A stretch of DNA of 64,000 bases from Bacteroidales bacterium (GTDB lineage: Bacteria; Bacteroidota; Bacteroidia; Bacteroidales; WCHB1-69), in the NCBI GenBank assembly GCA_017633255.1, contig JAGBPS010000022.1, positions 2,963-66,962 of the forward strand, in the 5' to 3' direction. Made by a program: the position numbers and the translations under genes. The first letter of the stretch is position 1, and every line of letters begins with the position of its first letter. Under the pieces are notes generated by a model. The model searched no databases. It was given only the letters and a program-made list of their open reading frames with translations, and was not told the DNA's origin. Below are positions 2,398 through 62,030 of this stretch, piece by piece.

Positions 2398-2430
2398 TAA
2401 ACTAAGAATTAAGAGTTAAGAACTAAAAAT

Positions 2431-2550
2431 CCATAACCCATAACCTTCTCACCTTCTCACCCTCTAATCGTGTAACCTTCTAATCGTGTAACCTTCTCAC
2501 CTTCTCACCCTGTAATCGTGTAACCGTGTAACCTTCTAACCATGTAACCC
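2431..2550. repeat. Array of 15 gap-free octamers (TCTCACCT/TCTAATCG/TGTAACCT variants)
   Basis: ccataacc cataacct tctcacct tctcaccc tctaatcg tgtaacct tctaatcg tgtaacct tctcacct tctcaccc tgtaatcg tgtaaccg tgtaacct tctaacca tgtaaccc. It fills the spacer between gene 2553..3377 and rlmN. Confidence 0.9.
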
Positions 2551-2552
2551 CG

Positions 2553-3381: not shown

Positions 3382-5205
3382 TTATTCTATGCTGATTTGC
3401 ATGGGCATCATAGCCTGTACGCCTTCAGCTCTTTTCAGTTGATTTAATCCTTGATAAATGTAATACTGGTCGCCTAATTCCTGTTTGATGAAAGCCTGGA
3501 CATTGTTGTCACTGCTGGATTTCTCCATCAATTTGGTCCAGAAATCTTTCTTCTTGGGATAATAGCTGATCTTGTAATTTTCCAGCTTAGCCAGCTCGGC
3601 GGCTTTGGCTACAGCGTCATCGATATTACCCAGGGCATCCACCAGACCGATTTTCAGGGCGTCGGAACCTGCCCATACACGACCTTGTCCGATTTCATCC
3701 ACTGCGGATTGTTCCATGCCACGGCCATCGGCCACACGCTGGGTGAATACTCCGTAGAAGTCGTCAATAAATTCTTGATAAACAGCCAATTCTTCGGCAT
3801 TCATCGGACGCATGGTGCCACCAGCGTCAGAATGCTTGTTGGTGCTTACGCCATCAACAGTTACACCCAGTTTGTTTTTCAACGCTCTTTGGAATGACGG
3901 AACCACGCCAAACACACCGATAGAGCCGGTCAAAGTGTTGGGCTGTGCGATGATGTAGTTGGAGTTGCAGGAAATGTAATAACCGCCGGAAGCTGCATAG
4001 TCGCCCATGGAGGTCACCACAATCTTACCGGCTTTCTTGGCCTGTTCGATTTCATGCCAGATAATGTCGGAAGCAGTGCCGTCGCCACCGGGAGAGTTGA
4101 CACGCAACACAATAGCCTTCACATTGTCAGAAGTATAGGCCTCTTTGATCAGTTTCACCATTGTTTCAGAGCCCATGATATCATTTCCTGATTTGCCACC
4201 TCTGATTTCGCCAACGGCATAGATTATCGCAATCTCGTCCTTGGCCGTGTTATTCTCTGCTTTGAGAGCCTTGGTGTATTCAGCCAAAGTGGTGATATTC
4301 AAATCTTTGTCATTCTCTACATTCACCAGTTTCTTCAGATCCTGAACCACGTCGCTTTTGTAGCAAGCCTTGTCGATGAGTTTGCTTTCGACGGCTTTGG
4401 CGGCCGTGCCGATGAACATGCCGTCAGCAATGTTGTTCACTTCTTCTGTACTCAATTTTCTTGATGCCGCGATGTCTTCCACCATAGTGTTCCACAAGGT
4501 GTTGGCCAACAAGGTCATCTGTTCGCGGTTGGCATCGCTCATTTTATCCGTGAGGAACGGTTCCACCGCGCTTTTGAATTTGCCGTGACGGATTACCTGC
4601 ACATCCACATCCAACTTGTCGATAAGGCCTTTGTAAAACATCACCTGCATGGCGATACCCTTGAACTGGATCAGACCAGTGGTGCTCATGGTCACCTTGT
4701 CGGCTACAGATGACAGGTAATAGCCTCCCTGTGCATAGCTGTCGGCATACGCATAGATGAATTTTCCTGATGCTTTGAATTCCATCAGCGCATCATGGAT
4801 TTCCTTGAGGGTGGCGGGAGCGGCTCCCACAGACTCGCTGTTGATGTAGATACCTTTGATTTTCGGGTCTTTGGCGGCCGATTTGATGCAGGCCAGAATA
4901 TCGTCCAAGCCGATGGAAGATTGATAGTACTGGCTGAATTCATCGCCAAACATGTCGAAAGGATTCTCCACCGCCTGTTCACTGATGTTTTTCTGCAAGT
5001 CCAGTTTCAGGATGGAATTGTCTTTCACGCTCACGGTAGTGGTAGTGCCCATGGAGGCAATCATCGCTGCGAACATGAACATGGATAAAATGGAAACGAT
5101 GATGCAGGAGAAAAAGAAGCCCACCATGGTTCCGAACACGATGCGCCAGAATTTTCTTGCTCCGGTTTCTTTTTTCTTTGGTTTGAAATAGTCTTCTTGT
5201 CCCAT
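3382..5205 (-). CDS. sppA: Signal peptide peptidase SppA, 67K type
   Basis: 607 aa with an N-terminal TM helix and two ClpP-like halves. Motifs VNSPGGDGTASD and AASGGYYIS. Confidence 0.9.
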   Translation of the reverse strand: MGQEDYFKPKKKETGARKFWRIVFGTMVGFFFSCIIVSILSMFMFAAMIASMGTTTTVSVKDNSILKLDLQKNISEQAVENPFDMFGDEFSQYYQSSIGLDDILACIKSAAKDPKIKGIYINSESVGAAPATLKEIHDALMEFKASGKFIYAYADSYAQGGYYLSSVADKVTMSTTGLIQFKGIAMQVMFYKGLIDKLDVDVQVIRHGKFKSAVEPFLTDKMSDANREQMTLLANTLWNTMVEDIAASRKLSTEEVNNIADGMFIGTAAKAVESKLIDKACYKSDVVQDLKKLVNVENDKDLNITTLAEYTKALKAENNTAKDEIAIIYAVGEIRGGKSGNDIMGSETMVKLIKEAYTSDNVKAIVLRVNSPGGDGTASDIIWHEIEQAKKAGKIVVTSMGDYAASGGYYISCNSNYIIAQPNTLTGSIGVFGVVPSFQRALKNKLGVTVDGVSTNKHSDAGGTMRPMNAEELAVYQEFIDDFYGVFTQRVADGRGMEQSAVDEIGQGRVWAGSDALKIGLVDALGNIDDAVAKAAELAKLENYKISYYPKKKDFWTKLMEKSSSDNNVQAFIKQELGDQYYIYQGLNQLKRAEGVQAMMPMQISIE

Positions 5206-6599: not shown

Positions 6600-7655
6600 T
6601 TAGTGTGCAAAATTACACAAAATCCTTGAAATATTAGATTTTTCTTGAAATAAGAAATACGGTTCTATTGGCAGAGAAAACAAGGGAATAGTTTCCAGGT
6701 GTTTGGAGAGAGTTCCATAAATCAACCGCATACTGTCTTTTTCAGTGGTAACCAGTATTCGTTTTTGATTTTTATCTGAAAAAAATGTTTTTTGGATTTC
6801 CGCTATTTCCTCGGTTGAAAAATAATGATGGTCTGCAAAATGGTAATGATGGATAATCTTGAACTTTTCAGACAGATACTTAACCATTGGCTCAGGGTGG
6901 GCGATGGCGGTGAGTACCACCACTTCGGTTTGTGGGGTCAGCTGATGCTGTTTCCCGCATTCATTCAAAGCGACCAGTTCTCCGTAATGCATGGTGGTGA
7001 AAAACAGCTGCTGATAATCTTGCAATTTCAGCAACTGAGCCATCTCAGAGCATTGTACTTCGGTCATGTCCGCTGGGCATTTGCTCACTATCACGATATC
7101 AGCATAGCGGGCAGCAGAGCGAAACTCCCTCAAACGGCCTGCCGGCAGAGGATAATCTTTTGCGTATGGGGTTTGATATTCCGTAATCAGAATATTCAGA
7201 TGAGGTTTGACCTGCAAATGCTGATAGCAGTCATCCAAAATAATGTATTGCAAGTCGGGGAAACGTTGCAGCAGTTGCTGAATACCGTCTTTTCTTTTTT
7301 CATCCACCGCCACTTTGATGTGCGGAAATTTGGTATAGAACTGCAAGGGCTCATCTCCAATCATTTCCGCCGAGAGTTGCTGAGGGTCAATGTCGTTGGC
7401 TAGCACAAAGCCTTTGGTTTTGCGCTTGTATCCGCGACTCAGGGTGGCGATTTTATATTGATTTGATAATAAACGGATTAAATATTCAACATGAGGCGTT
7501 TTTCCTGTGCCACCCACCGACAGATTGCCCACCCCGATGGTTGGAACCGGGGCTTGATATGCTTTCCTCAAACCACAGCGGTACATCCAGCGGCGAAAGG
7601 CCGCCACCGCACCGTATATCAATGCAAAAGGGTATAAAAGTTTTTGTGGACGCAC
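6600..7655 (-). CDS. lpxK: Tetraacyldisaccharide 4'-kinase
   Basis: 351 aa with P-loop GVGNLSVGGTGKTPHVEYL. The start codon is GTG (plus strand reads cac at 7653-7655). Confidence 0.9.
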   Translation of the reverse strand: MRPQKLLYPFALIYGAVAAFRRWMYRCGLRKAYQAPVPTIGVGNLSVGGTGKTPHVEYLIRLLSNQYKIATLSRGYKRKTKGFVLANDIDPQQLSAEMIGDEPLQFYTKFPHIKVAVDEKRKDGIQQLLQRFPDLQYIILDDCYQHLQVKPHLNILITEYQTPYAKDYPLPAGRLREFRSAARYADIVIVSKCPADMTEVQCSEMAQLLKLQDYQQLFFTTMHYGELVALNECGKQHQLTPQTEVVVLTAIAHPEPMVKYLSEKFKIIHHYHFADHHYFSTEEIAEIQKTFFSDKNQKRILVTTEKDSMRLIYGTLSKHLETIPLFSLPIEPYFLFQEKSNISRILCNFAH

Positions 7656-7682: not shown

Positions 7683-7849
7683 TTCGTTTATACGTTAAGG
7701 CGTTAAGTCATTCGCTGCGCTCGTTCGTCAAGACGTTAAGTCATTCGCTGCGCTCATTCGTCAAGGCGTCAAGACAATTATCGTCTTCACGAGCGAACGA
7801 AGTGAGCGTCTCCACGTCTCCACGCCTCCACGTCTCCACGTCTTAACGA
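7683..7849 (+). repeat. Composite intergenic element (family shared with 61814-62030)
   Basis: Starts with TTCGTTTATACGTTAAGGCGTTAAG (exact 25-mer also at 61814-61838). This is followed by a 33-bp tandem duplication (7701-7733, 7734-7766), GAACGAAGTGAGCGTCTCC, and (GTCTCCAC)x4 at 7808-7842. Confidence 0.85.
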
Positions 7850-9782: not shown

Positions 9783-9845
9783 GGGTTAGGGATTAGGCGT
9801 TAGTAATTCAATTTTCAGTTTTCAGTTTTCAACTTTCAGTTTTTA
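9783..9845 (-). repeat. Stop-phased heptamer array (9 units) starting at the stop codon of the M23 gene
   Basis: Minus strand from 9845: TAAAAAC TGAAAGT TGAAAAC TGAAAAC TGAAAAT TGAATTA CTAACGC CTAATCC CTAACCC. Confidence 0.9.
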
Positions 9846-10810: not shown

Positions 10811-10890
10811 TTTAGGTTTTAGGGGTTAGGTTTTAGGGATTAGAATTTAGAAGTTTATCTTTTGAATTTTGAATTCTGAATTCTTTATTA
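10811..10890 (-). repeat. Heptamer array (11 units) in phase with the glucosaminidase stop codon
   Basis: Plus strand: TTTAGGT TTTAGGG GTTAGGT TTTAGGG ATTAGAA TTTAGAA GTTTATC TTTTGAA TTTTGAA TTCTGAA TTCTTTA, then tta (the stop complement). Confidence 0.85.
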
Positions 10891-12071: not shown

Positions 12072-13181
12072 TTAGTGTTTCAATAAGATTATATCATTAG
12101 GATGAATAACTGAATTTTCGTTCAAATTATTGTATTTGAAAATGGAATTAAGCTGGACTCCATATTTCTGTGAGATGTAACGTAGTGTCTCTCCGGCACT
12201 TACTGTGTGTTTCTTTTCTTTGCCGGCTTTGGCTTTCAGGCCGATATACACCACTTCGCCCACTACAGCTTCCTGTTTTTTATCCACAATATCATTATAT
12301 CTGCGGATGTTTTTTTCAGAATCCTGCACATCCTTGGCGATGGAAGCGTAAGTCTCACCCTCAGCGACAATGACAAAATAGCAGCGGTTATTGGCATACA
12401 CCTCACGTTCCGTAAACGGATACTTCACTTTCGGATACTGATTGGGTTCCGCGGTGAATACTCCTGTCCTCGTAGGCTGTTGATCTATATTCGAAGAAGT
12501 CCCTTCCTGAGGAATAGCACTATTACTTGCTACCTGATTCCTGTCACCTGATTCCTGACCACTATTTTCTGTCCCCTGTAACTTGTCCCCTGTAACCTGA
12601 TAAGCTGTAACATGAGCTTCTGCCCAAGCGATATTTTCCTCGGTAAACCAGTTGCTCTCAGCTCGCTGTTGGCAAAGCGTGTCCCATTGGGCAATGTTGA
12701 AGCGTTCAATCAGGTCGATCAGTCGTTCGGCATATTTGGGATTGGTGGCGTAGCCGGCGGCTTTCAAGCCTTTGGCCCAGGCCTTGTAGTCCATCACATC
12801 CAGCTGAAACAGTCCTGCATAGCGGGGACGGGAAGTCAGAAAGAGGGAATGGTCGTTGTAAGAGTCTTCCACCCGTTCGTATTTTCTGAAGCATTCCTGG
12901 AGTTCGTCATCGTCAATTCTCACGGTGTCGCCGGTCCATTCTTTGTGGCACTTGATGCCGAAATGGTTTTTTCCGTCACGGGCCAAGCGGCTGGTGCCGC
13001 AGGCGCTTTCAAATACGCCCTGTGCCAAAGTGATGCTGGCGGGGATCTTGTACTGGTACATCTTCAGGATGGCCAACTCCTTGTATTGGTCGATATAGCG
13101 GGCAATGTCCTCCTCAGTATATTGGGCGGAGACTTGCAAGCTGACTAACAGGCAAAGAAGTGCAATTATTGTCTTTCTCAT
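12072..13181 (-). CDS. Glucosaminidase with C-terminal LysM domains (tandem paralog of 10888..12066)
   Basis: Track ORF 12072..13208 trimmed to MRKTIIALLCLL (signal peptide). Contains IPASITLAQGVFESACGTSRLARDGKNHFGI. The linker is encoded by 7-nt periodic DNA. Confidence 0.8.
   Translation of the reverse strand: MRKTIIALLCLLVSLQVSAQYTEEDIARYIDQYKELAILKMYQYKIPASITLAQGVFESACGTSRLARDGKNHFGIKCHKEWTGDTVRIDDDELQECFRKYERVEDSYNDHSLFLTSRPRYAGLFQLDVMDYKAWAKGLKAAGYATNPKYAERLIDLIERFNIAQWDTLCQQRAESNWFTEENIAWAEAHVTAYQVTGDKLQGTENSGQESGDRNQVASNSAIPQEGTSSNIDQQPTRTGVFTAEPNQYPKVKYPFTEREVYANNRCYFVIVAEGETYASIAKDVQDSEKNIRRYNDIVDKKQEAVVGEVVYIGLKAKAGKEKKHTVSAGETLRYISQKYGVQLNSIFKYNNLNENSVIHPNDIILLKH
12531..12612 (-). 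repeat. 7-nt periodic repeat inside the coding linker of glucosaminidase 12072..13181
   Basis: cctgattcctgtca/cctgattcctgacca and tgtcccctgtaac x2. The 15-mer TGTCCCCTGTAACCT (12584-12598) recurs intergenically at 57240-57254. Confidence 0.8.
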
Positions 13182-13262
13182 CAGGTTGTTTTTTTTAATT
13201 AAGAACAAAGAATTAAGAGTTAAGAATGTTGATTTGTTTTTTTCGTTAAGAAGTTGAGATGA

Positions 13263-13325
13263 ATTTTTAATTCTTAGTTTTTAGTTCTTAATTTTCAACT
13301 TTCAGTTTTCAATTTTCAGTTTTCA
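13263..13325 (-). repeat. Stop-phased heptamer array (9 units) starting at the ddl stop codon
   Basis: Minus strand from 13325: TGAAAAC TGAAAAT TGAAAAC TGAAAGT TGAAAAT TAAGAAC TAAAAAC TAAGAAT TAAAAAT. Confidence 0.92.
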
Positions 13326-14303: not shown

Positions 14304-14407
14304 TTTACATTATTATTTATTCTGGCAAAGATACAAAAATCAACCCCAGCAATTTCTTAATGAGGGATTACTTTTGAACATGGTGAAGTTAATTTTCACC
14401 TTTGTGT

Positions 14408-14564
14408 GAGATTCTGCCTGTCGCTGCGCTCCATGCGGAATGGTGCGCAGTGATTTGAAGTAACGGAGAGGAGGGGGGATGGGCGACGCCCATCCCCCCT
14501 CCTCTTATATCCATCAGGAGCATCACCATTCCGCAAGCTCACGCAGTGAGAGCAGCGGAATCTC
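14408..14564. repeat. 157-bp nested palindromic element (MITE/REP-like)
   Basis: Imperfect ~40-bp terminal inverted repeats (GAGATTCTGCCTGTCGCTGCG..GCGGAATGGTG / CACCATTCCGC..CGCAGTGAGAGCAGCGGAATCTC) flank a perfect 19-bp-arm palindrome at 14467-14505 (AGAGGAGGGGGGATGGGCG a CGCCCATCCCCCCTCCTCT). A third arm copy lies at 14595-14626. Confidence 0.85.
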
Positions 14565-15019: not shown

Positions 15020-15219
15020 AGTTTATTGTATTGGTTCACGTAGGTGTTTGAAGCAGCAAGAGTCAGCCCATTTTAAATCATTTTTTTACATTGCAAATAT
15101 ACAATTTATTTTAATATAAATTGCAAAAATTATTTTTAATGTGATGTATGAAAACCAAATTCAAAAAATTTTCAGTAAGAGTAATTTAACTCCCATGCAT
15201 GGCAATCTTCTAAAAACAA

Positions 15220-15264
15220 TTGGCACATTAGCACATTTGCTAATTAGCACATTGAAAAATTTCG
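15220..15264 (+). repeat. Promoter-proximal octamer module TTGGCAC-ATTAGCAC-ATTTGCTA-ATTAGCAC-ATTGAAAA
   Basis: Runs directly into the prfA -7 box. Related copies at 30505-30537, 31977-32033 and 57704-57778(-). Confidence 0.85.
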
Positions 15265-22950: not shown

Positions 22951-23559
22951 ATGGATAGTAATCTTGTACTTACTGGCAATTCAATCCAAAATATAATCTA
23001 CGACATCAGGGGTGTTAAAGTGATGCTGGACTATGACTTGGCAACAATGTATGAAGTAGAGGTGGCTCAATTAAAACGTCAGGTTCGTCGCAATTTAGAC
23101 CATTTCCCAAAAGATTTCATGTTTGAGCTGACAACTGAAGAACTTACCGCTTTAAGGTGCCAAAATGGCATCTTAAAGACAGGACGTGGTCAACATAGCA
23201 AATACTTGCCCTTTGCATTCACCGAGGAAGGAGTTGCCATGCTATCAGGACTACTTCGAAGCAAAATCGCCATACAAGTTAACATCAACATCATGCGAGC
23301 ATTTGTCGCCGTGAGACAAGCTGTTGCTGCTATGCAATCATCAGAACTACGTTATGAGCAACTCTCCCATAAGGTTGACCAACTGAACGCTTACGTTGAA
23401 GACATCCTCCATGATCAGAATGACATCAACGAGCATCAGGAACAATTTAACAATGAACTAGCCCTGCAAATCGAGATCATTAATGATGCATTGGACCAGT
23501 TGCGCGAGAAGAAAAACACACCAGGTAATCCAATTGGATTTAAATTACAAGGGAGATGA
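22951..23559 (+). CDS. ORF6N (KilA-N-related) DNA-binding domain protein with C-terminal coiled coil
   Basis: 202 aa. IRGVKVMLDYDLATMYEV..QLKRQVRRNLDHFPKDFMFELT..SKYLPFAFTEEGVAMLSGLLRS is the ORF6N signature. Confidence 0.8.
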   Translation: MDSNLVLTGNSIQNIIYDIRGVKVMLDYDLATMYEVEVAQLKRQVRRNLDHFPKDFMFELTTEELTALRCQNGILKTGRGQHSKYLPFAFTEEGVAMLSGLLRSKIAIQVNINIMRAFVAVRQAVAAMQSSELRYEQLSHKVDQLNAYVEDILHDQNDINEHQEQFNNELALQIEIINDALDQLREKKNTPGNPIGFKLQGR

Positions 23560-23607
23560 TGCCAAGAGATGGGATTTGTGCTTTTGTTTTTGTATTGGAA
23601 TATTTTG

Positions 23608-23615
23608 TACTTTTG
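23608..23615 (+). promoter_or_regulatory. -7 box TACTTTTG (orphan membrane protein)
   Basis: 21 nt upstream of ATG 23636. Part of a ~41-bp cassette shared with 24767-24810. Confidence 0.6.
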
Positions 23616-23635
23616 TAGGGTTGAAAATACTTATA

Positions 23636-24496
23636 ATGATGAATATTTCTATGGATAAACCGTTGGATTACAAATATTTTCTGCTTGGAATTATCCTTTA
23701 TTGGATGTTTGATGTCGCTTGGGCGTCATTTGCCCCCACTTTATTCTTCGCTTTGGATGCTGTGCTGCATCCGATAGCCGTGGTTGTGGGGAAATCCGTA
23801 GCGTACCTGCTGGTCTTCTACTTCCTGTTCCGAAAGCCGAGGATGTTCAATGTCAAATGGGGACATTTCGCAATCTTTGTGGGGGCGATTGTTCTGATAA
23901 ATTTCTTGACCTCTTTTATCTTTTATCGTTTCATTGACCTTAGCACTTTCTCAGCCAATCAGATGAAATGGGATATCCCCAACTACACGATGAAAAACGT
24001 ACGGATGTGGGTAAATCTGGTCACAACGCTTCTCACCGTCGGTTTCATTTGGTGGCGCTACGATTCGGATAACGCAGCCGCTGACCCTGAAATCTCTTCG
24101 AGCGAGTCACGAAGCTTTTACGCAGGGATGCTGTTCACCATCACCCTTGGGTACATCCTTTCCGTGGTTAATGTGCTCGGCAGCGAATATTGGAAATTTG
24201 CTCACTTTCCCATATTGGTTGAGGTGATTACCTGTCTGCTGATTGTGCTTATCACTATAGGAGCTGTCTTAATGCTGAATAAAAGACAAACGATGGTACT
24301 CTCCATCACAGCGATTATTATAATCATCACCATACACTTTTTCTTATCGCATTATTTACCGAACATCATGTCCAAGTGTCTCACGCCCAACGACGCCATA
24401 TACGGACAGGTGAATTATTTTGGCTATGTTTCGGCCTTTTGCGATATTGCGTTCAACTTGGATGTCTTTATCCTTTATCGTAGGGCAAACTCTTAA
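23636..24496 (+). CDS. Orphan polytopic membrane protein (about 7-8 TM)
   Basis: Track ORF 23483..24496 trimmed to ATG 23636 (MMNISMDK..), 21 nt after the -7 box TACTTTTG. No family recognised. Confidence 0.6.
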   Translation: MMNISMDKPLDYKYFLLGIILYWMFDVAWASFAPTLFFALDAVLHPIAVVVGKSVAYLLVFYFLFRKPRMFNVKWGHFAIFVGAIVLINFLTSFIFYRFIDLSTFSANQMKWDIPNYTMKNVRMWVNLVTTLLTVGFIWWRYDSDNAAADPEISSSESRSFYAGMLFTITLGYILSVVNVLGSEYWKFAHFPILVEVITCLLIVLITIGAVLMLNKRQTMVLSITAIIIIITIHFFLSHYLPNIMSKCLTPNDAIYGQVNYFGYVSAFCDIAFNLDVFILYRRANS

Positions 24497-24779
24497 AGCG
24501 CGGCTGCCGTGTGTTGAATCTGTTGAGGCTGCCGTGACACAACAGCCCTACAAGATGCTACCTGATGTGCCCCCATGTGATGTGCGAGTAGCGCCTTATA
24601 CAGACTTTCTATGGAAGAACCCGTCGGCATGGCTTTCGCACGCGGCATTAGTGCAAGTGTCAACCAGAATCATTCGCAAGTTACAAAAGTGACAACTAAA
24701 ATCAGCGAGACACATAGTTACCTATAGTTTGAACAATATTATATTGTAAAAGAAGGATGGCAGATATCAGAATATTTTG

Positions 24780-28774: not shown

Positions 28775-30391
28775 ATGGAAAACAATTATACTGACAACAA
28801 TAGTTCAGCCAACAACCGCATCAAGAATTTCTTCACCATCGCCATCTCGTTTCTGGTGGGTATGACGGTGGCGCTGTATTTTGTTCCCGGTCGGCAAAGC
28901 GGACTGAGCAAGATGCAAAGCAACAAATTGGATGAGGTGGTGAAGTACGTTAACTCATATTATGTGGATACGGTGAACACGGACAAATTGTTTGAAATCG
29001 CCATTAATTCGATGTTGCAGGAGCTGGACCCGCACTCCACCTACGCCAATGCCACTGAAAACAAAGCCATGATGGAGAGTTTGGAAGGGGCTTTTGAGGG
29101 AGTGGGCATCCAGTTCAGCATCATGAACGACACCATTATGGTAATTTCCACGGTCAGTGGCGGTCCTTCCGAAAAGCAGGGCATTCGTGCCGGCGACCGT
29201 ATTGTGACTGTGGATGGCAAGAATGTGGCGGGTATCGGTATTCAGAATGATGAGGTGATGAAGATGCTCCGTGGCAAGAAGAAAACCACGGTGGTCATCG
29301 GCATTTTGCGACAAGGTTCCGTAAATGATTACACGGTCACCCGTGACGTGATACCTACCTATACGCTTGATATTTCCTACATGGTTGATGATCACACGGG
29401 TTATATCAAAATCAACCAGTTTGGGGCTACGACTGCCGACGAATTTGAGGCGGCGATCAAGAAGTTGAAAAAACAGGGTATGACCAAGATGATACTGGAT
29501 TTGCGAAGCAATTCAGGAGGTTTCCTGGATGCCGCTATCCAGATTTGTGACGAGTTCTTGGCCAAGGGGGAGATGATTGTTTACACGGAAGGCTTGCATG
29601 TGCCTACGGACAAGATATATGCCACTCGTTATGGTAATTTTGAAAAGGGTGAAGTGGTGGTACTGATTGACGATTTCAGCGCTTCTGCCAGTGAGATTGT
29701 GGCCGGAGCCATCCAGGATAATGACCGTGGTATTGTGGTGGGTCGTCGTTCTTTCGGAAAAGGACTGGTACAAAGACAGATAGACCTTTCTGACAAGTCT
29801 AGCATCCGTCTGACAGTGGCGCGTTATCATACCCCCAGTGGACGATGCATCCAGCGTGAATACGGCGAGGGAACGGAAGCTTATTACGAGGATTTCATTG
29901 ACCGCTATTATCGTGGCGAGATGAGCCATTCCGATAGCATCAAGTTTGATGAGAACCAGAAATTCACTACCAAGAAAGGACGTACGGTGTATGGTGGTGG
30001 CGGCATTATGCCCGACTATTTCATTCCTTTGGATGAAGACAGCACATTGAATGCTTATTACCAGGTGTTGAATTCATCAGCCATTATCCAGTTTGCTTTC
30101 AATTATGCTACTGATCATAAGGATAAAATTCTGAAACAATTCCCCACGGCTCAAGACTATGTGAAGAAAATGACGGTGAGCAATGATTTACTCAAACAAC
30201 TGCTGAATTTCTATACGCAAAAGACAGGATTGAAGGTGAAAGACCTTAATGCAGAATCTATCAAGGAACTCAAGGTTTGGCTCAAAGCCTTGATTGGACG
30301 TGATGTATACCAAGACGAAGCTTTCTATCCCGTCATCAACAGCACTGACAAAACTTTCCTGAAAGCAGTAGAGCTGACAATTGAAAACTGA
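28775..30391 (+). CDS. S41-family C-terminal processing peptidase (Ctp/Tsp) with PDZ domain
   Basis: 538 aa. Contains GVGIQF, a PDZ domain (GPSEKQGIRAGDRIVTVDG), DLRSNSGG and SASASEI..GKGLVQ. Confidence 0.9.
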   Translation: MENNYTDNNSSANNRIKNFFTIAISFLVGMTVALYFVPGRQSGLSKMQSNKLDEVVKYVNSYYVDTVNTDKLFEIAINSMLQELDPHSTYANATENKAMMESLEGAFEGVGIQFSIMNDTIMVISTVSGGPSEKQGIRAGDRIVTVDGKNVAGIGIQNDEVMKMLRGKKKTTVVIGILRQGSVNDYTVTRDVIPTYTLDISYMVDDHTGYIKINQFGATTADEFEAAIKKLKKQGMTKMILDLRSNSGGFLDAAIQICDEFLAKGEMIVYTEGLHVPTDKIYATRYGNFEKGEVVVLIDDFSASASEIVAGAIQDNDRGIVVGRRSFGKGLVQRQIDLSDKSSIRLTVARYHTPSGRCIQREYGEGTEAYYEDFIDRYYRGEMSHSDSIKFDENQKFTTKKGRTVYGGGGIMPDYFIPLDEDSTLNAYYQVLNSSAIIQFAFNYATDHKDKILKQFPTAQDYVKKMTVSNDLLKQLLNFYTQKTGLKVKDLNAESIKELKVWLKALIGRDVYQDEAFYPVINSTDKTFLKAVELTIEN

Positions 30392-30430
30392 AAACTGAAA
30401 GTTGAAAACTGAAAACTAAGAATTAAAAAT
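30382..30430 (+). repeat. Stop-phased heptamer array (7 units) spanning the ctp stop codon
   Basis: TGAAAAC TGAAAAC TGAAAGT TGAAAAC TGAAAAC TAAGAAT TAAAAAT. The second unit (30389-30391) is the real stop. Confidence 0.92.
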
Positions 30431-30492
30431 ATTTCAACAATTCAACAATTCAACAGTTCAACAATTCAACATTCTTAACTTTTAATTCTTAG
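30416..30492 (+). repeat. 13-bp perfect stem CTAAGAATTAAAA / TTTTAATTCTTAG enclosing a (TTCAACAA)x5 octamer array
   Basis: Stem arms at 30416-30428 and 30480-30492. The loop at 30433-30472 reads TTCAACAA TTCAACAA TTCAACAG TTCAACAA TTCAACAT. Confidence 0.8.
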
Positions 30493-30504
30493 TTCTTAAC
30501 TTAA

Positions 30505-30537
30505 TTGGCATATTAGCACATTGATAATTAGCACATT
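30505..30537 (+). repeat. Octamer module copy TTGGCATATTAGCACATTGATAATTAGCACATT
   Basis: Ends 7 nt before the kdsC ATG (30544). Confidence 0.8.
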
Positions 30538-30543
30538 AAATAT

Positions 30544-31964: not shown

Positions 31965-31976
31965 GGTATAAGTGTA

Positions 31977-32033
31977 TTGGCATATTAGTACATTGAAAAT
32001 TAGCACATTAACTAATTTGCTAATTTGCTAATT
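31977..32033 (+). repeat. Octamer module copy TTGGCATATTAGTACATTGAAAATTAGCACATTAACTAATTTGCTAATTTGCTAATT
   Basis: Lies between the xerD stop and the -7 box at 32042. Confidence 0.85.
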
Positions 32034-32832: not shown

Positions 32833-34065
32833 ATGAGAAACGAGAAAATTTTTGCCGGCAAAACCCTGGCAATTCTGTCTGGAGGTGGCGATACCCCCGC
32901 TATCAATTCAAGTATTGAAGCTGTAAGAAACCGTGCATCCATGCTGGGTTTCAAGGTTTATGGTATCCTTCGTGGCTGGAAAGGCCTCCTCGGCGACGGT
33001 GATGTGGTGGATTTGACCAACATTGCATACAATGGTATTTATGGCGGTACCGGCCTGCTGTCAAGCCGTACCAACCCCTTCCCCAGCAAGAAAAATCCGG
33101 AAGACCGCTCCCAACAGATTCTGAAAAATATCGAGAGATACAAAATCGATGTGTTGGTGACCATCGGTGGTGACGATACCAATGGCGCTGCCAAGAAGAT
33201 GTACGAGAAATATGGCATTCCCGTAATAGGTTTCCCGAAGACTATTGACAATGACTTGAGAACCAGAACAATTCATCATTATCAGGGACAGCAATATGAG
33301 ACTGTTTTGTGCCCAGGTTTCCCTTCAGGCGCAATGGCTATCAAGAAACTGACGAGTAAGTTGCATACCACCAATGAATCCCACCAGCGTATTATGGTGC
33401 TGGAGGTGATGGGTCGTGATGCTGGTTGGTTGACAGGCACGGCTGTTTTCGGTGGTGCCCAGATTGCTTTGGTTCCTGAAGTGGAGATGACCAAAGAGCG
33501 CAAGGACTTCTTCTTCGAACATGTGAAAGAACAGTATATGCGTTCCCCGAAACACAGCTTGATTATTGCTGTGTCAGAGGGTGTTAGATGGTGGAATGAA
33601 GAGAAACAGAGCCTGGAGATGGTGTATGCCAGCCCCGATTTGGATGAGTATGGTCATCCTCGTTTCGGTGGTATCAGTGGCGTTATCGCTTCCGAAATTT
33701 CCAAGAAACTGGGTATCGAGGCCCGTGGTCAGATTTCAGGTTACATTCCTCGTTCGGGCAAATGCTACGAGTACGATCGTCGCTTGACCTCTACCTTGGC
33801 TGACAAAGTGGTGGATTTGCTGCTGCGTGAGGACTATGGCAAAATGCCGGTGATGCGTGACATCGTGCCTTACAGCGAATTGGAAGAATTCCACACCGAC
33901 GCTATCGACATGGGCAATATCGGCAATTTCCCGCTGCCGTCAAATTATTACAACCCCAACGAATTCCAGTTCACCGACCAGTATGTTGACTTCCTGACCA
34001 ACATCATCGGTGCACCGTATCGTATGGAGTTCACTCACAATTTCCCGATTGTCATCCCACAGTAA
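32833..34065 (+). CDS. Phosphofructokinase family protein, probably PPi-dependent (GGDDT variant)
   Basis: 410 aa. Motifs ILSGGGDTPAIN, TIGGDDTNGAA, PKTIDNDL, MGRDAGWL. Confidence 0.88.
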   Translation: MRNEKIFAGKTLAILSGGGDTPAINSSIEAVRNRASMLGFKVYGILRGWKGLLGDGDVVDLTNIAYNGIYGGTGLLSSRTNPFPSKKNPEDRSQQILKNIERYKIDVLVTIGGDDTNGAAKKMYEKYGIPVIGFPKTIDNDLRTRTIHHYQGQQYETVLCPGFPSGAMAIKKLTSKLHTTNESHQRIMVLEVMGRDAGWLTGTAVFGGAQIALVPEVEMTKERKDFFFEHVKEQYMRSPKHSLIIAVSEGVRWWNEEKQSLEMVYASPDLDEYGHPRFGGISGVIASEISKKLGIEARGQISGYIPRSGKCYEYDRRLTSTLADKVVDLLLREDYGKMPVMRDIVPYSELEEFHTDAIDMGNIGNFPLPSNYYNPNEFQFTDQYVDFLTNIIGAPYRMEFTHNFPIVIPQ

Positions 34066-34118
34066 TTATTAGGTTATAGGGATTAGGTTTTAGGGATTAG
34101 TGAGGAGTTAGTAATTAA
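34063..34118 (+). repeat. Stop-phased heptamer array starting at the pfk stop codon
   Basis: TAATTAT TAGGTTA TAGGGAT TAGGTTT TAGGGAT TAGTGAG gagttag TAATTAA. Confidence 0.9.
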
Positions 34119-37477: not shown

Positions 37478-38242
37478 ATGATAGAAGTTAAGAATGTTTC
37501 GAAATATTTTGGCGAGAAGCAGGTGCTGAAAAATATCACCACGCAGTTTGAGGAAGGCAAAGTCAACCTGATTATTGGTCGTTCTGGTTCCGGCAAAACC
37601 GTGATGATGAAATGTCTGGTGGGGCTTCATACTCCTGATGAAGGTGAGATACTATACAATGACAGGGCTTTCAGACGTCTGTCGGAGAAAGAGAAACGTG
37701 ATCTGCGTGCCGATATGGGCATGGTGTTCCAGGGTTCTGCATTGTTCGATTCCATGACCATTGAGGAGAATGTGCGTTTCCCGTTGGATATGCTGAAAGA
37801 TATGGAATATGGAGAGAAAATGGAGCGTGTGAATTTCTGCCTGAAGCGTGTGGATTTGGAAAATACCAACAAACTGTTTCCTGATGAGTTGAGTGGCGGT
37901 ATGAAGAAACGCGCCGCTATTGCCCGTGCCATTGCCTGCAATCCCAAGTACTTGTTCTGCGATGAGCCCAACTCCGGTTTGGATCCGAAGACCTCTTTAA
38001 TCATTGATGACCTGATTTTTGACATTACCCATGAATTTGGCATCACCACGGTGGTGAATACCCACGACCTGAACTCGGTGATTACGATAGGGGAGACCAT
38101 CTCTTACATTTACGAGGGTAACCTGGCTTGGGTAGGCACCATGAATAATGTGCTGACCTCCGATAACAAACTGTTGAATGAGTTCATCTATGCCCAACCC
38201 CTGACACAAAGAATAAGACAGGTGTCAGGTGTTAGTGATTAG
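37478..38242 (+). CDS. mlaF: ABC transporter ATP-binding protein (MlaF-like)
   Basis: 254 aa. Walker A GRSGSGKT, LSGGMKKR and LFCDEP. The last codons lie inside the heptamer array. Confidence 0.88.
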   Translation: MIEVKNVSKYFGEKQVLKNITTQFEEGKVNLIIGRSGSGKTVMMKCLVGLHTPDEGEILYNDRAFRRLSEKEKRDLRADMGMVFQGSALFDSMTIEENVRFPLDMLKDMEYGEKMERVNFCLKRVDLENTNKLFPDELSGGMKKRAAIARAIACNPKYLFCDEPNSGLDPKTSLIIDDLIFDITHEFGITTVVNTHDLNSVITIGETISYIYEGNLAWVGTMNNVLTSDNKLLNEFIYAQPLTQRIRQVSGVSD

Positions 38243-38302
38243 GTGTTAGATGACAGGAAACAGTATACTAACCCCTAATCCCTATAACCTAACACCTAGA
38301 AT
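38219..38302 (+). repeat. Heptamer array (12 units) spanning the mlaF 3' end, its stop codon and the whole spacer to the cvpA ATG
   Basis: CAGGTGT CAGGTGT TAGTGAT TAGGTGT(real stop 38240) TAGATGA CAGGAAA CAGTATA CTAACCC CTAATCC CTATAAC CTAACAC CTAGAAT. Confidence 0.88.
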
Positions 38303-38840: not shown

Positions 38841-38860
38841 CCCCATACGTCAGTATGGGG
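38815..38860 (+). repeat. Hairpin element, copy A (GCCTC-GAA-GAGGC .. AATAA CCCCATAC-gtca-GTATGGGG)
   Basis: Hairpin 1 lies inside the last cvpA codons and hairpin 2 starts right after the stop. A partial second hairpin-1 copy is at 38888-38900. Confidence 0.8.
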
Positions 38861-38924
38861 TGGGTGAACAATCTCTGTCATCGTCAAGCCTCGAAGAGGC
38901 AACACTATCAATAGAAACTGTATA

Positions 38925-41398: not shown

Positions 41399-41430
41399 TT
41401 TTAAAGAATATAAAGATAATTCCTTAAGCA

Positions 41431-41515
41431 GCCTCGAAGAGGCAAGATTTTAATAACCCCGCACAAGCGATAGCGCAGTGTGGGGCACCGCACAAGGCGA
41501 AGCCGAAGTGTGGGG
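41431..41515 (+). repeat. Hairpin element, copy B (three hairpins)
   Basis: GCCTCGAAGAGGC aagattttaataa CCCCGCACaaGCGatagCGCaGTGTGGGG CACCGCACaaggcgaagccgaaGTGTGGGG. Confidence 0.85.
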
Positions 41516-41539
41516 AGTGTGAAACAAAAGAAATAAGCA

Positions 41540-41624
41540 GCCTCGAAGAGGCAAGATTTTAATAACCCCGCACAAGCGATAGCGCAGTGTGGGGCACCTC
41601 ACAAGGCGCAGCCGCAGTGTGGGG
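41540..41624 (+). repeat. Hairpin element, copy C (tandem, 109-bp period with copy B)
   Basis: Identical to B through hairpin 2. Hairpin 3 differs at 4 positions (CACCTCAC..GGCGCAGCCGCA..). Confidence 0.85.
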
Positions 41625-41638
41625 ATAAAAAGAAATAT

Positions 41639-57222: not shown

Positions 57223-57262
57223 ATCTGTTCCCTGAAACCTGTCCCCTGTAACCTAAATCTTG

Positions 57263-57703: not shown

Positions 57704-57778
57704 AATTAGCAAATTAGCAAATTAGTTAATTAGTAAATGATTTTAATGTGCTAATGAGTCTATGTGCTAATGTGCCAA
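57704..57778 (-). repeat. Octamer module copy (minus orientation)
   Basis: Reverse complement: TTGGCACATTAGCACATAGACTCATTAGCACATTAAAATCATTTACTAATTAACTAATTTGCTAATTTGCTAATTG, followed by the -7 box. Confidence 0.85.
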
Positions 57779-58045
57779 TGAATAATTGGTAATTTACTGA
57801 ACGAATTAATGTACCAGTGGAAGATGTTGAAGAGGACAAATACATGAAAGGGATAGAAGGAGGGTGCCGAAGGTCGGGTTTTCGGAATTTTGGAAGGAAA
57901 TTTTGCAAAACTTGAAAGCCTGAAATCGGTCTCCAAAGGGTCGACTCTCACTACCATAAGCGATGATTGATGAGGGCGTTTAAAACAAAAAACCAGCAAA
58001 CTAATTTATTTAACTTGCTGATTCTGATTGTTTTGCAAACTGCTG

Positions 58046-58130: not shown

Positions 58131-58189
58131 GCCGGCAAAAGTACAAAAATTTTTGTTTGATGCAACAGGTGGATGAAAAAAATTTCAAA

Positions 58190-58292
58190 GGGTAGTCTCG
58201 TTTCGCTTAAGGGGAGTCTCATGCTATGCATTCGAGGGGAGTTGTGCTGACGCACAAAAGGGGAGTCTCGCACTGCGTGCTCGAGGGGAGTT
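58190..58292. repeat. GGGGAGTCTC / TCGAGGGGAGTT repeat block with small hairpins
   Basis: GGGTAGTCTCG..GGGGAGTCTC atgctatgcat TCGAGGGGAGTT gtgctgacgcac AAAA GGGGAGTCTC gcactgcgtgc TCGAGGGGAGTT. The period is about 49 bp. Confidence 0.8.
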
Positions 58293-58296
58293 TAAA

Positions 58297-58366
58297 AAGT
58301 CTAATTGTCAATTGTCAATTATCAATTGTCAACTGTTAACTGTTAACTGTTAACTGTTAACTGTCA
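58297..58366 (-). repeat. Stop-phased heptamer array (10 units) starting at the stop codon of the MurU-like gene
   Basis: Minus strand from 58366: TGACAGT TAACAGT TAACAGT TAACAGT TAACAGT TGACAAT TGATAAT TGACAAT TGACAAT TAGACTT. Confidence 0.93.
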
Positions 58367-59074
58367 ACTATTAAAGTCCTCAAACTTCCCCATATCCTTC
58401 CAGTGACCTTCATTGTGCAGAAAACCTTTAAGCAGGTTTGTTTTCGCCAAATCAATGTATATCGGGGTGATGGACTGTTTCTCGGCAGAGGGAATCTGCT
58501 TAATGAGCTCACGGTGCACCACATGGATGCCGCTGAATGCCAGTTCCTGGTAAGTGGCGGTTTGCAGAGAAATAATCTCCTCGCCAGTCTTGCTGTTGCG
58601 CCAGCCGCAGAGTCTCATCTCTTCGTCAAACAGGAAATAACGGCTGGTCTTGCGCCGTCGTACCGCCAAAGTGGCCAAAGCCCCGTGGTTTTCGTGATAA
58701 GCTATAAGTTGTCCCAGATCGATGTCGGATAGTATATCGACATTGTGCAACAGGATGTTTTCGCTGTCAGCCAGCAGGGGTTCTGCGAATTTCAACCCGC
58801 CACCGGTGTCGCGCAGGTAATCACGTTCGTCGGAAATCTGGATTTCCGCATCATGGGGATGCTCTTTCAGGTATTGGATGATGAGGTCGGGAAAATGGTG
58901 CACGTTGACCACAATGTGCTGGATGCCAGCGGTGATGATTTTGCGCAGCACGTGCTCTAACAGTGGTTCTCCGTGGTATTCAACCAGGGCCTTCGGCTTG
59001 TCGGCCGTGAGCGGATACAGGCGTGTTCCCAAGCCTGCCGCAAATATCATGGCGGAAATATTTTTCATCTTCAA
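58364..59074 (-). CDS. Sugar-phosphate nucleotidyltransferase (MurU-like)
   Basis: 236 aa. MIFAAGLGTRLYPLTADKPKALV is the NTP_transferase signature. Confidence 0.8.
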   Translation of the reverse strand: MKMKNISAMIFAAGLGTRLYPLTADKPKALVEYHGEPLLEHVLRKIITAGIQHIVVNVHHFPDLIIQYLKEHPHDAEIQISDERDYLRDTGGGLKFAEPLLADSENILLHNVDILSDIDLGQLIAYHENHGALATLAVRRRKTSRYFLFDEEMRLCGWRNSKTGEEIISLQTATYQELAFSGIHVVHRELIKQIPSAEKQSITPIYIDLAKTNLLKGFLHNEGHWKDMGKFEDFNS

Positions 59075-61813: not shown

Positions 61814-62030
61814 TTCGTTTATACGTTAAGGCGTTAAGACATGCATTGCGTGCATTCGTGAAGACGGAAAGACGATATCGTATAACCGAGTGAACGAAGT
61901 GAACGACTTAACGAGCGAATGGAATGAGCGTCTCCCCGAGCGAGCACAGCGAGTGTCTCCTCAAGCGAATGAGATGAGTGTCTCCTCAAGCGAATGAGAT
62001 GAGTGTCTCCACGCCTTCACGAAAAAAATC
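61814..62030 (+). repeat. Composite intergenic element (second member of the family at 7683-7849)
   Basis: Has the same 25-mer head, GAACGAAGTGAACG, GAGCGTCTCC, then a 25-bp tandem repeat GAGTGTCTCCTCAAGCGAATGAGAT x2.4 (61961-62020). Confidence 0.85.

Follow-up and report, generated by a model that had tools for sequence, protein, structure and literature searches.

Why should the DNA behind a bacterial gene be built of 7-nt units that each open with a stop triplet, so that every reading frame is closed again and again? The question is raised by a 64,000-nt stretch of Bacteroidales DNA (assembly GCA_017633255.1, contig JAGBPS010000022.1, positions 2,963 to 66,962; hereafter the window, to which all coordinates refer), and most clearly by the array that follows its ddl gene. 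From 13325 down to 13263, the gene strand reads TGAAAAC TGAAAAT TGAAAAC TGAAAGT TGAAAAT TAAGAAC TAAAAAC TAAGAAT TAAAAAT, exactly as a sequence-only reading of the window had quoted it, and the first of these units is the ddl stop codon itself (TGA, 13325-13323). That reading listed six further loci of the same kind and saw in them an undescribed class of elements, possibly stop insulators kept behind genes. The comparison of orthologous junctions leads to another answer. The arrays are heptanucleotide (some of them octanucleotide) simple-sequence repeats, a fast-evolving and known bacterial class, which probably result from a lineage-specific burst of slippage-made repeats copied between loci, the manner and place of their origin accounting for the stop phasing.

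The source of the window is an uncultured Bacteroidales bacterium of the rumen, whose Ddl is 97% identical to that of a Bacteroidales metagenome-assembled genome (MAG) from red-deer gut and shares 87-95% identity with the Ddl of several rumen MAGs. Public contigs supplied the gene calls and Pfam labels, which were transferred to the window, and tandem arrays were called by Tandem Repeats Finder (TRF). Syntenic loci at graded distances were collected by a scan of a genome collection with Ddl and a metagenome scan with Ctp, and further loci by look-ups of MurU-like homologs. Orthologous junctions were compared in about 25 related genomes and metagenome contigs, the loci or contigs of these relatives being labelled by L-numbers (L003, L010, L020 etc.). 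Since several metagenome assemblies contain the region in identical form and at the same length, the arrays are not assembly artefacts.

One argument comes from the turnover of the arrays at orthologous junctions. Per 10 kb, the window and its close relatives hold 1.6-4.7 arrays of 7- or 8-nt units, whereas outgroup Bacteroidales hold 0-0.5; arrays of this kind also appear in unrelated MAGs. In the outgroups, the pairs formed by ddl and the glucosaminidase-LysM gene, by the glucosaminidase gene (Glc) and the first M23 peptidase gene (M23a), and by M23a and the second one (M23b) lie 4-17 nt apart with no repeat in between, and the arrays are therefore recent insertions into tight operon junctions. 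Single junctions have their array missing or swapped for another unit family in relatives at 93-97% protein identity. The M23a-M23b junction is empty in L011 despite 97% amino-acid identity of the flanking protein, and ctp relatives at 95% and 89% identity have no TGAAAAC array. At the Glc-M23a junction, L020 has no array, the window and L011 have GAATTCA/CTAAnCC units, L010 has a TAAGAAC/TCTTAAT cassette, and L012 and L013 have CTGACCC-type units. An insulator maintained to close three frames, as first suggested for these arrays, is contradicted by their absence from the outgroups and from some relatives with 93-97% identical flanking proteins. The arrays also change in length by whole units (ddl +7 nt, MurU-like +14 nt, the TTCAACAA block behind ctp +8 nt), with copy numbers from 2 to 10 across orthologs. 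Of the four roles that had been offered, it is that of slippage-prone spacers which these unit steps at ddl and the MurU-like gene bear out. Finally, period and stop position had been thought to persist while the unit sequence differs. This expectation failed at M23a, where the first TGA unit lies +7 from the stop in the window and L020, +6 in L010 and +8 in L012 and L013, and other unit families occupy the same junctions in sister lineages.

The arrays and associated blocks at the seven loci first listed are as follows.

9783 to 9845, minus strand: M23a-M23b spacer, nearly all heptamers: TAAAAAC (which holds the stop), TGAAAxY four times, TGAATTA, and CTAAnCC three times.
10811 to 10890, minus strand: glucosaminidase-M23a spacer, with GAATTCA three times, which lacks a sense stop, followed by units of the CTAAnCC type that do not keep phase with the annotated stop.
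13263 to 13325, minus strand: ddl array of nine gap-free heptamers, five of the type TGAAAAY/TGAAAGT, then four of the type TAAGAAY/TAAAAAY.
13197 to 13290, minus strand: AT-rich cassette built of [TAAGAAY]n, a 36-nt loop and [RTTCTTA]n; its homologs are the ctp cassette, 2403-2430 and copies that relatives have at other junctions.
30375 to 30430, plus strand: ctp array; units 1 and 2 are coding (..ELTIEN*), unit 3 gives the stop at 30389-30391, and TGAAAxY and TAAGAAT/TAAAAAT units follow.
30433 to 30499, plus strand: octamer array TTCAACAA five times, then an RTTCTTA cassette arm; no sense stop; six copies in the 95%-identical relative.
34063 to 34118, plus strand: PFK array TAATTAT TAGGTTA TAGGGAT TAGGTTT TAGGGAT TAGTGAG GAGTTAG TAATTAA, in phase with the PFK TAA.
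38219 to 38298, plus strand: MlaF-CvpA inverted heptamer arrays, a CAGGTGT/TAGGTGT arm facing a CTAACCC/CTAACAC arm; the first three units lie within the MlaF coding sequence.
58297 to 58373, minus strand: MurU-like array: TAATAGT (last codons), TGACAGT (stop), TAACAGT four times, TGACAAT/TGATAAT four times, TAGACTT.

TRF found period-7 arrays at all seven loci, besides many 8-mer arrays in the window, and the anatomy originally described (a 7-nt period, stop triplets in most of the units, spacers between co-directional genes) is largely right. The phasing claimed for all seven holds for M23a, ddl, ctp, PFK and the MurU-like gene. It is lost at the glucosaminidase gene, as the first array there offers no stop in sense and the CTAAnCC units follow in another phase, and at MlaF, where the frame reads through two stop-less CAGGTGT units before ending at TAG 38240-38242 and the remainder is an inverted array. 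In the window, 613 of 750 array bases are intergenic, and the relatives are alike, the exception being a coding linker of the glucosaminidase-LysM gene. The density per kb of spacer is 2.4 in co-directional, 1.6 in convergent and 0.7 in divergent spacers, counted over orthologous loci that are not independent samples. Many arrays begin at or within the upstream stop, and their TRF boundaries overlap the upstream coding ends by 1-18 nt, or by 23 nt at MlaF because of its two units without stops. The M23a-M23b array ends 6 nt ahead of the M23b ATG.

Several gene ends have been rewritten in this way. The coding sequence of ctp includes two units (TGACAAT TGAAAAC), and the Ctp residues past the conserved ..KAVELT are array-encoded (IEN*), the ends of relatives being KER*, TGD*, TEK* and E*. 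The final two codons of ddl (AAA AAC) already fit the repeat unit (AAG AAC TAA being the equivalent in L011), and in L013 and L014 a 1-nt deletion in ddl makes the stop fall one array unit later. In L043, the C-terminus of CvpA is replaced by a GATTCAG array. The C-terminus ..FNS* of the MurU-like protein is native across homologs of 80-89% identity. Here the repeat unit is made up of the stop and the 4 nt before it (CAGT TGA), and relatives carry 5-10 units. This is the product expected from tandem duplication of a stop-containing heptamer.

The arrays also share modules. A homologous [TAAGAAY]n-loop-[RTTCTTA]n cassette behind ddl and ctp had been noticed from the sequence and is confirmed; it is present at at least five junctions, convergent ones included, among them 2403-2430 and other junctions in relatives. 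Unit vocabularies that differ between loci had been held to argue against the spread of a single repeat. This does not stand, as an identical 33-nt module (TGAAAAC TGAAAAT TGAAAAC TGAAAGT TGAAA) is found at the ddl junction of the window and at the M23a junction of L012 and L013. The occurrence of this module and of the cassette at different junctions shows that modules were copied between loci and that the arrays are not independent inventions of one design.

Four further arrays lie outside the seven loci.

2403 to 2552, minus strand: block absent from the original list; octamers GGTTACAC/GGTTAGAA/GGTGAGAA 14 times, then RTTCTTA heptamers, filling the DUF1295-orf342 spacer.
7807 to 7843, minus strand: octamer array GACGTGGA, 4.6 copies, immediately behind the PhoH stop; neither strand has a stop triplet, which makes it a counter-example.
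57225 to 57254, minus strand: YAGGNNN heptamers in the convergent spacer after a MurL_C-domain gene, mostly CAGG units and hence without a stop.
12533 to 12596, minus strand: CAGGNNN heptamers in the coding sequence of the glucosaminidase-LysM gene, forming a 7-residue-periodic linker.

In the last of these, the CAGGNNN heptamers of the interdomain linker are read in frame (..YQVTGDKLQGTENSGQESGDRNQVAS..); the length of this repeat linker varies among relatives, and outgroups have an unrelated linker. It is a non-coding repeat family co-opted as protein sequence.

How would such arrays come about? In the course that we propose, replication slippage would first duplicate in tandem a 7-nt stretch in or beside a spacer of 4-17 nt, and with a spacer that small the duplicated heptamer would often hold the upstream stop codon. 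Where it includes the real stop, every copy would bear a stop in phase. The arrays would then grow and shrink by whole units, as seen in the length steps, while transitions such as TGA to TAA or C to T, and the reverse, accumulate in the units, as seen within the arrays. Modules, whose sharing is observed, would be copied from junction to junction, possibly where recombination or a template switch acts on A-rich microhomology. Where an array overlaps a gene end, the protein would stop at the first in-frame array stop, as at ctp, at MlaF and at ddl of L013 and L014; the annotated stop is in phase because the reading frame ends there. Arrays that are stop-less in the sense direction and abut a gene end would extend the protein, so that stop-bearing sense units may be the ones tolerated at such places. 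In the coding linker, the YAGGNNN family seems to survive only as stop-free CAGG variants. The presence of CAGGNNN heptamers in this linker therefore points to a repeat-forming process that is blind to location, with selection deciding what survives. An enrichment in sense stops is thus expected without a dedicated function, since arrays nucleated on a stop inherit it and stop-less units lengthen the protein. That all three frames are closed is real, but as a by-product and not as a function that is maintained.

A count of stop triplets at +7n offsets had been proposed as a test of the phasing. Over the 64 gene ends of the window, 58 stop triplets lie at offsets of 0 mod 7 against 19-34 in each of the other six classes. 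The excess is there; all of it comes from M23a, Ddl, Ctp, PFK and the MurU-like gene, and the same test in relatives gave a weak excess or none. Conservation within the units is found at positions 1, 3 and 5, whereas positions 2, 4, 6 and 7 vary, mainly by transitions (TGA to TAA or the reverse). The stop positions are thus not uniquely protected, position 5 being as conserved as 1 and 3, in a comparison that is weakly informative and biased because the register was picked to maximise stops. Several heptamer arrays met by chance in unrelated MAGs have no stop triplet, and stops are no general property of the class of heptamer repeats.

Some observations weigh against an origin by slippage and copying. 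A sense stop is carried by 30 of 36 arrays where 18.0 +/- 2.5 are expected with unit letters shuffled, and by 14 of 19 distinct units where 9.5 are expected (P = 0.006). The pattern (TRA-N4)x4-TRA has 19 overlapping matches in five loci against 0.02 expected from shuffles, and all of them fall on the sense strand of the flanking genes. Downstream arrays lying off the stop (CTAAnCC, RTTCTTA) carry sense stops too, which nucleation on a stop codon does not directly explain. The period of 7 is left unexplained by slippage, and the lineage DNA compared amounts to about 0.4 Mb, short of a whole genome.

The sense-specific enrichment is real. Antisense stops are not enriched (18 of 36 arrays against 17.2 expected with letter-shuffled units); composition alone is accordingly ruled out as the cause of stop richness on the sense strand and holds on the antisense. 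For comparison, 35% of heptamers from non-array co-directional spacers would give a sense stop upon repetition, and 51% of those from short spacers including the stop codon. The sense-stop statistic is weakened because the copying of modules leaves only about eight independent unit families. The signals of enrichment and sense orientation fit a tolerance filter together with the copying of a few modules; weak selection for stops is compatible with them as well.

With this origin, the arrays are a clean natural example of simple-sequence repeats that colonise tiny operon spacers, alter the final codons of genes and provide them with new stops. They also call for caution in reading function into a pattern that is born with the repeat, as a heptamer copied from a stop must close three frames. 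A lineage with many unit families and dense comparative data is a good place to study why a 7-nt unit is favoured in bacteria. A practical consequence concerns genome assembly. The short contigs L003, L004 and L005, which carry ddl, end about 21-23 nt past its stop, inside the heptamer array, and many contigs with MurU-like homologs are just 1-3 kb long. Short-read contigs with either gene often break off in the array, no more than about 21 nt past the stop; the arrays are breakpoints for k-mer assemblers and fragment the MAGs of this lineage at gene ends.

Structure in the transcribed spacers was considered as well. Among eight spacers folded as RNA, that of MlaF alone is significantly structured, its inverted heptamers forming a strong hairpin (-33.4 kcal/mol, z = -5.7), whereas those of M23a, ddl, ctp and PFK do not surpass their shuffles. 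The long-loop hairpins described behind ddl and ctp are homologous, yet as RNA they also fold no better than shuffled sequence (z = -0.6 for the ddl cassette). Short-loop copies of the cassette in relatives form strong AT-rich hairpins (z about -5.4). A search of the whole window against Rfam gave nothing at the arrays and a tRNA-Ser as its sole match, and a scan for consensus terminators and promoters in the ddl-M23 region detected nothing like a terminator at the arrays on the gene strand. As only one spacer in eight is significantly structured, a role as terminators or as repetitive extragenic palindrome (REP)-like elements was dropped as a general explanation. Telomere-like TTTAGGG units and 7-bp transposon footprints were set aside for want of any supporting feature.

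Among the functional alternatives, an action at the RNA level deserves the first mention. Transcribed arrays might punctuate operons by uncoupling or tuning the translation of the downstream cistron, either as an unstructured A-rich spacer or as multivalent sites in which U-R-A recurs at 7-nt intervals and to which ribosomal protein S1, cold-shock proteins or a ring-shaped RNA-binding protein of the HutP/TRAP type would bind. HutP recognises three UAG-N4 motifs. The U-R-A triplets that recur every 7 nt in gene sense make the likeness to such sites one of resemblance only, and no oligomeric RNA-binding protein of the HutP/TRAP type is found among the Pfam-labelled gene calls of the window (about 64 kb). 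The arrays run flush from stop to start codon in gene-sense orientation, direct arrays are essentially structure-free (the M23a spacer reaches only -0.8 kcal/mol) and CTAAnCC-type units stand immediately upstream of three start codons in the window, all of which would suit such a role; in the same vein, MacGregor proposed binding of S1 or cold-shock proteins to TAACTGA repeats upstream of start codons (PMC4679880). However, presence and unit family vary at the same junction among close relatives, so that no junction depends on the arrays. Besides, fold energies differ from shuffles in neither direction, and many unlike unit sequences would have to be recognised. We regard this action as unlikely.

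It is quite unlikely that the arrays, and above all the [TGAAAAY]n[TAAGAAY]n-loop-[RTTCTTA]n cassette, are non-autonomous elements resembling REPs or MITEs (miniature inverted-repeat transposable elements) that insert at gene ends, with tandem units as a property of the element and not of local slippage. Such mobility would account for the identical 33-nt module at different junctions of different genomes, for the homologous cassette at its five or more junctions, convergent ones included, and for one junction being taken by different families in sister lineages; within this lineage, another element, a GC hairpin, is clearly mobile between junctions. Yet the MurU-like array is made from the last 4 nt and the stop of its own gene and counts 5-10 units in relatives, length differences amount to single units, and neither terminal inverted repeats nor target-site duplications nor a transposase came to light. 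The idea also overlaps with the slippage origin, which already includes copying between loci.

A bolder possibility joins the sense U-R-A-N4 arrays with the period-7 hairpins of unrelated phyla that are described below. Together they could represent a widespread, uncharacterised RNA punctuation inside operons, consisting either of multivalent sites for ribosome-associated or ring-shaped proteins or of selected backup terminators (e.g. in hosts exposed to phages that suppress stop codons); we consider this very unlikely.

The least probable of the alternatives is that of selected three-frame stop insulators, kept to end ribosomes that have read through or shifted frame at the upstream gene: stops are enriched beyond composition on the sense strand specifically, the long TRA-N4 runs are all gene-sense and the 1-nt deletion in ddl of L013/L014 is "rescued" three codons on by the next array stop, which recalls fail-safe or "ambush" out-of-frame stops in that extra stops in all frames lie just past the real one, but array presence and phase are unconserved at orthologous gene ends (absence in outgroups and some 93-97% relatives, different families elsewhere, drift by +6/+7/+8, no +7n excess in relatives), stop-less arrays lie directly after stops (GAATTCA, GACGTGGA, CAGG-type), unit position 5 is as conserved as the stop positions 1 and 3, readthrough of TGA is not backed up by a TGA-only array, and no general selection for fail-safe stops exists in bacteria (PMC6764699).

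An origin by slippage and copying also places the arrays beside systems already described. They had been presented as an undescribed element class. Heptanucleotide tandem repeats are in fact described bacterial simple-sequence repeats, and the stop content of one of them, TAACTGA, has been discussed (PMC4679880). According to the accounts of Mrazek et al. (2007) given in PMC4679880 and PMC4692102, heptamers are the over-represented class of longer simple-sequence repeats (LSSRs) in many bacteria, and polymerase slippage was proposed as their origin. The arrays of the window resemble LSSRs in their head-to-tail 7-nt units, mostly intergenic position, sporadic and lineage-specific abundance and unit-step variation, and in the slippage proposed. 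They differ by being AT-rich and stop-rich, by combining several families as modules in one spacer, by filling operon-internal spacers from stop to start, and by their host, an uncultured rumen Bacteroidales lineage. Tandem 7-nt units, intergenic position, unit-step changes, lineage-specific abundance and a bias to 3' ends and co-directional spacers are all found here.

Direct repeats of TAACTGA are known from Beggiatoaceae, Cyanobacteria and a few Bacteroidetes (MacGregor 2015, PMC4679880). In several Bacteroidetes, heptamer arrays are mixed with TAACTGA, can be missing from the corresponding junction of close relatives and change by indels of 7-nt steps (PMC4679880). The arrays of the window are alike in combining different heptamers, in their absence from that junction in close relatives and in the 7-nt steps. 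In forward orientation TAACTGA gives stops in all frames, so that its overlap with gene ends is at most 18 nt (PMC4679880); the overlaps given above keep within this limit of about 18 nt, with MlaF at 23. The repeats of BOGUAY (Beggiatoaceae) lie just upstream of start codons (PMC4679880), whereas those of the window touch both stop and start because the whole spacer is occupied. No TAACTGA dimer with at most one mismatch lies inside an array, and at two mismatches only AAACTGA and, on the opposite strand, TAACTGT appear. The GGGAATC/GGGGAYT heptamers of Xanthomonas and Nostoc (Rehm et al. 2015) are about 90% intergenic, lie far nearer to the 3' end of the upstream open reading frame (ORF) than to the next gene and are mostly co-directional (PMC4692102). 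Ours are similarly 3'-proximal and co-directional, with length and sequence varying between close species. The Xanthomonas/Nostoc units are G-rich, quadruplex-forming and without a stop triplet on either strand, whereas those of the window are A/T-rich and mostly stop-bearing; stops are thus not general to the heptamer class.

With REPs and bacterial interspersed mosaic elements (BIMEs), the arrays share the build of modular intergenic mosaics, co-directional or convergent, in which some modules are inverted and fold into hairpins (the MlaF spacer, the TAAGAAY/RTTCTTA cassette); unlike them, most arrays of the window are structure-free direct repeats. Short tandemly repeated repetitive (STRR) heptamers were reportedly described in heterocystous cyanobacteria by Mazel and colleagues in 1990, and PMC4692102 mentions them. 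Their units are CCCCAGT, TTGGTCA and CAACAGT. The likeness lies in tandem heptamer families dispersed in intergenic DNA, and TAACAGT of the window is one base off STRR3 (CAACAGT). Phylum and units are different, no homology is implied, and none of the STRR units matches a TRF consensus in the window.

Inverted heptamer arrays were also met outside the lineage, in one Nitrospirota MAG and two that are unclassified (L026:1900-1995, 6843-6931 and 14359-14464; L027:2472-2580 and 3811-3923; L025:3493-3561), where they take up co-directional spacers all the way between stop codon and Shine-Dalgarno sequence. They fold into long hairpins in which each unit gives six pairs and one mismatch (z = -4.4 to -7.1), often from units without stop triplets. 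To our knowledge, this periodic architecture of six pairs plus one mismatch has not been described.

Other repeats accompany the arrays, the genome being unusually rich in several kinds of intergenic repeat. In relatives, a GC-rich double-hairpin element (CCCCTTCTNTTAGAAGGGGTGGCCGAAGGCCGGGG...) stands at differing gene junctions, including directly after the ddl heptamers (L010:5007, L012:5083, L013:1877 and 7334, L014:11007, L020:8528, L037:42, L043:20110 and L052:5406). It was not found in the window and behaves like a mobile REP/MITE-like element. Further GC-rich hairpin repeat families occupy other co-directional spacers of the window (41425-41625, 38841-38900, 14304-14500 and 58160-58290); examples are a 109-nt unit in 1.8 copies with CCCCGCACAAG..GTGTGGGG and AGCCTCGAAGAGGCA hairpins, and ACTCCCC-punctuated hairpins beside the tRNA-Ser. 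Upstream of the S6-S18-L9 ribosomal protein genes, a 25-nt tandem repeat (61951-62010) differs by exactly one copy between the window and the otherwise 99.85%-identical L008 and L009.

A module TTGGCAYATTAGCACATT...ATTAGCACATT, with the 8-mer ATTAGCAC, recurs at 15219-15261, 30506-30540, 31976-32033 and 57704-57780, and is followed by CTAATTTG repeats at two sites. At three of its four sites it stands just upstream of the Bacteroidetes-type -7 motif TAnnTTTG (RF2, DUF4197 and the MurL_C-domain gene); at the fourth, upstream of HAD, this motif was not found. TTAGCACATT has six occurrences against 0.14 expected. The module looks like a promoter-proximal element or a regulator site, and its position suggests that the RF2 and DUF4197 starts have been called too far upstream. 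Finally, the 1.2-kb "spacer" at 23560-24756, which has no called gene, holds a 337-aa ORF (23483-24496) with many hydrophobic stretches and is probably an unannotated membrane protein gene rather than non-coding DNA.

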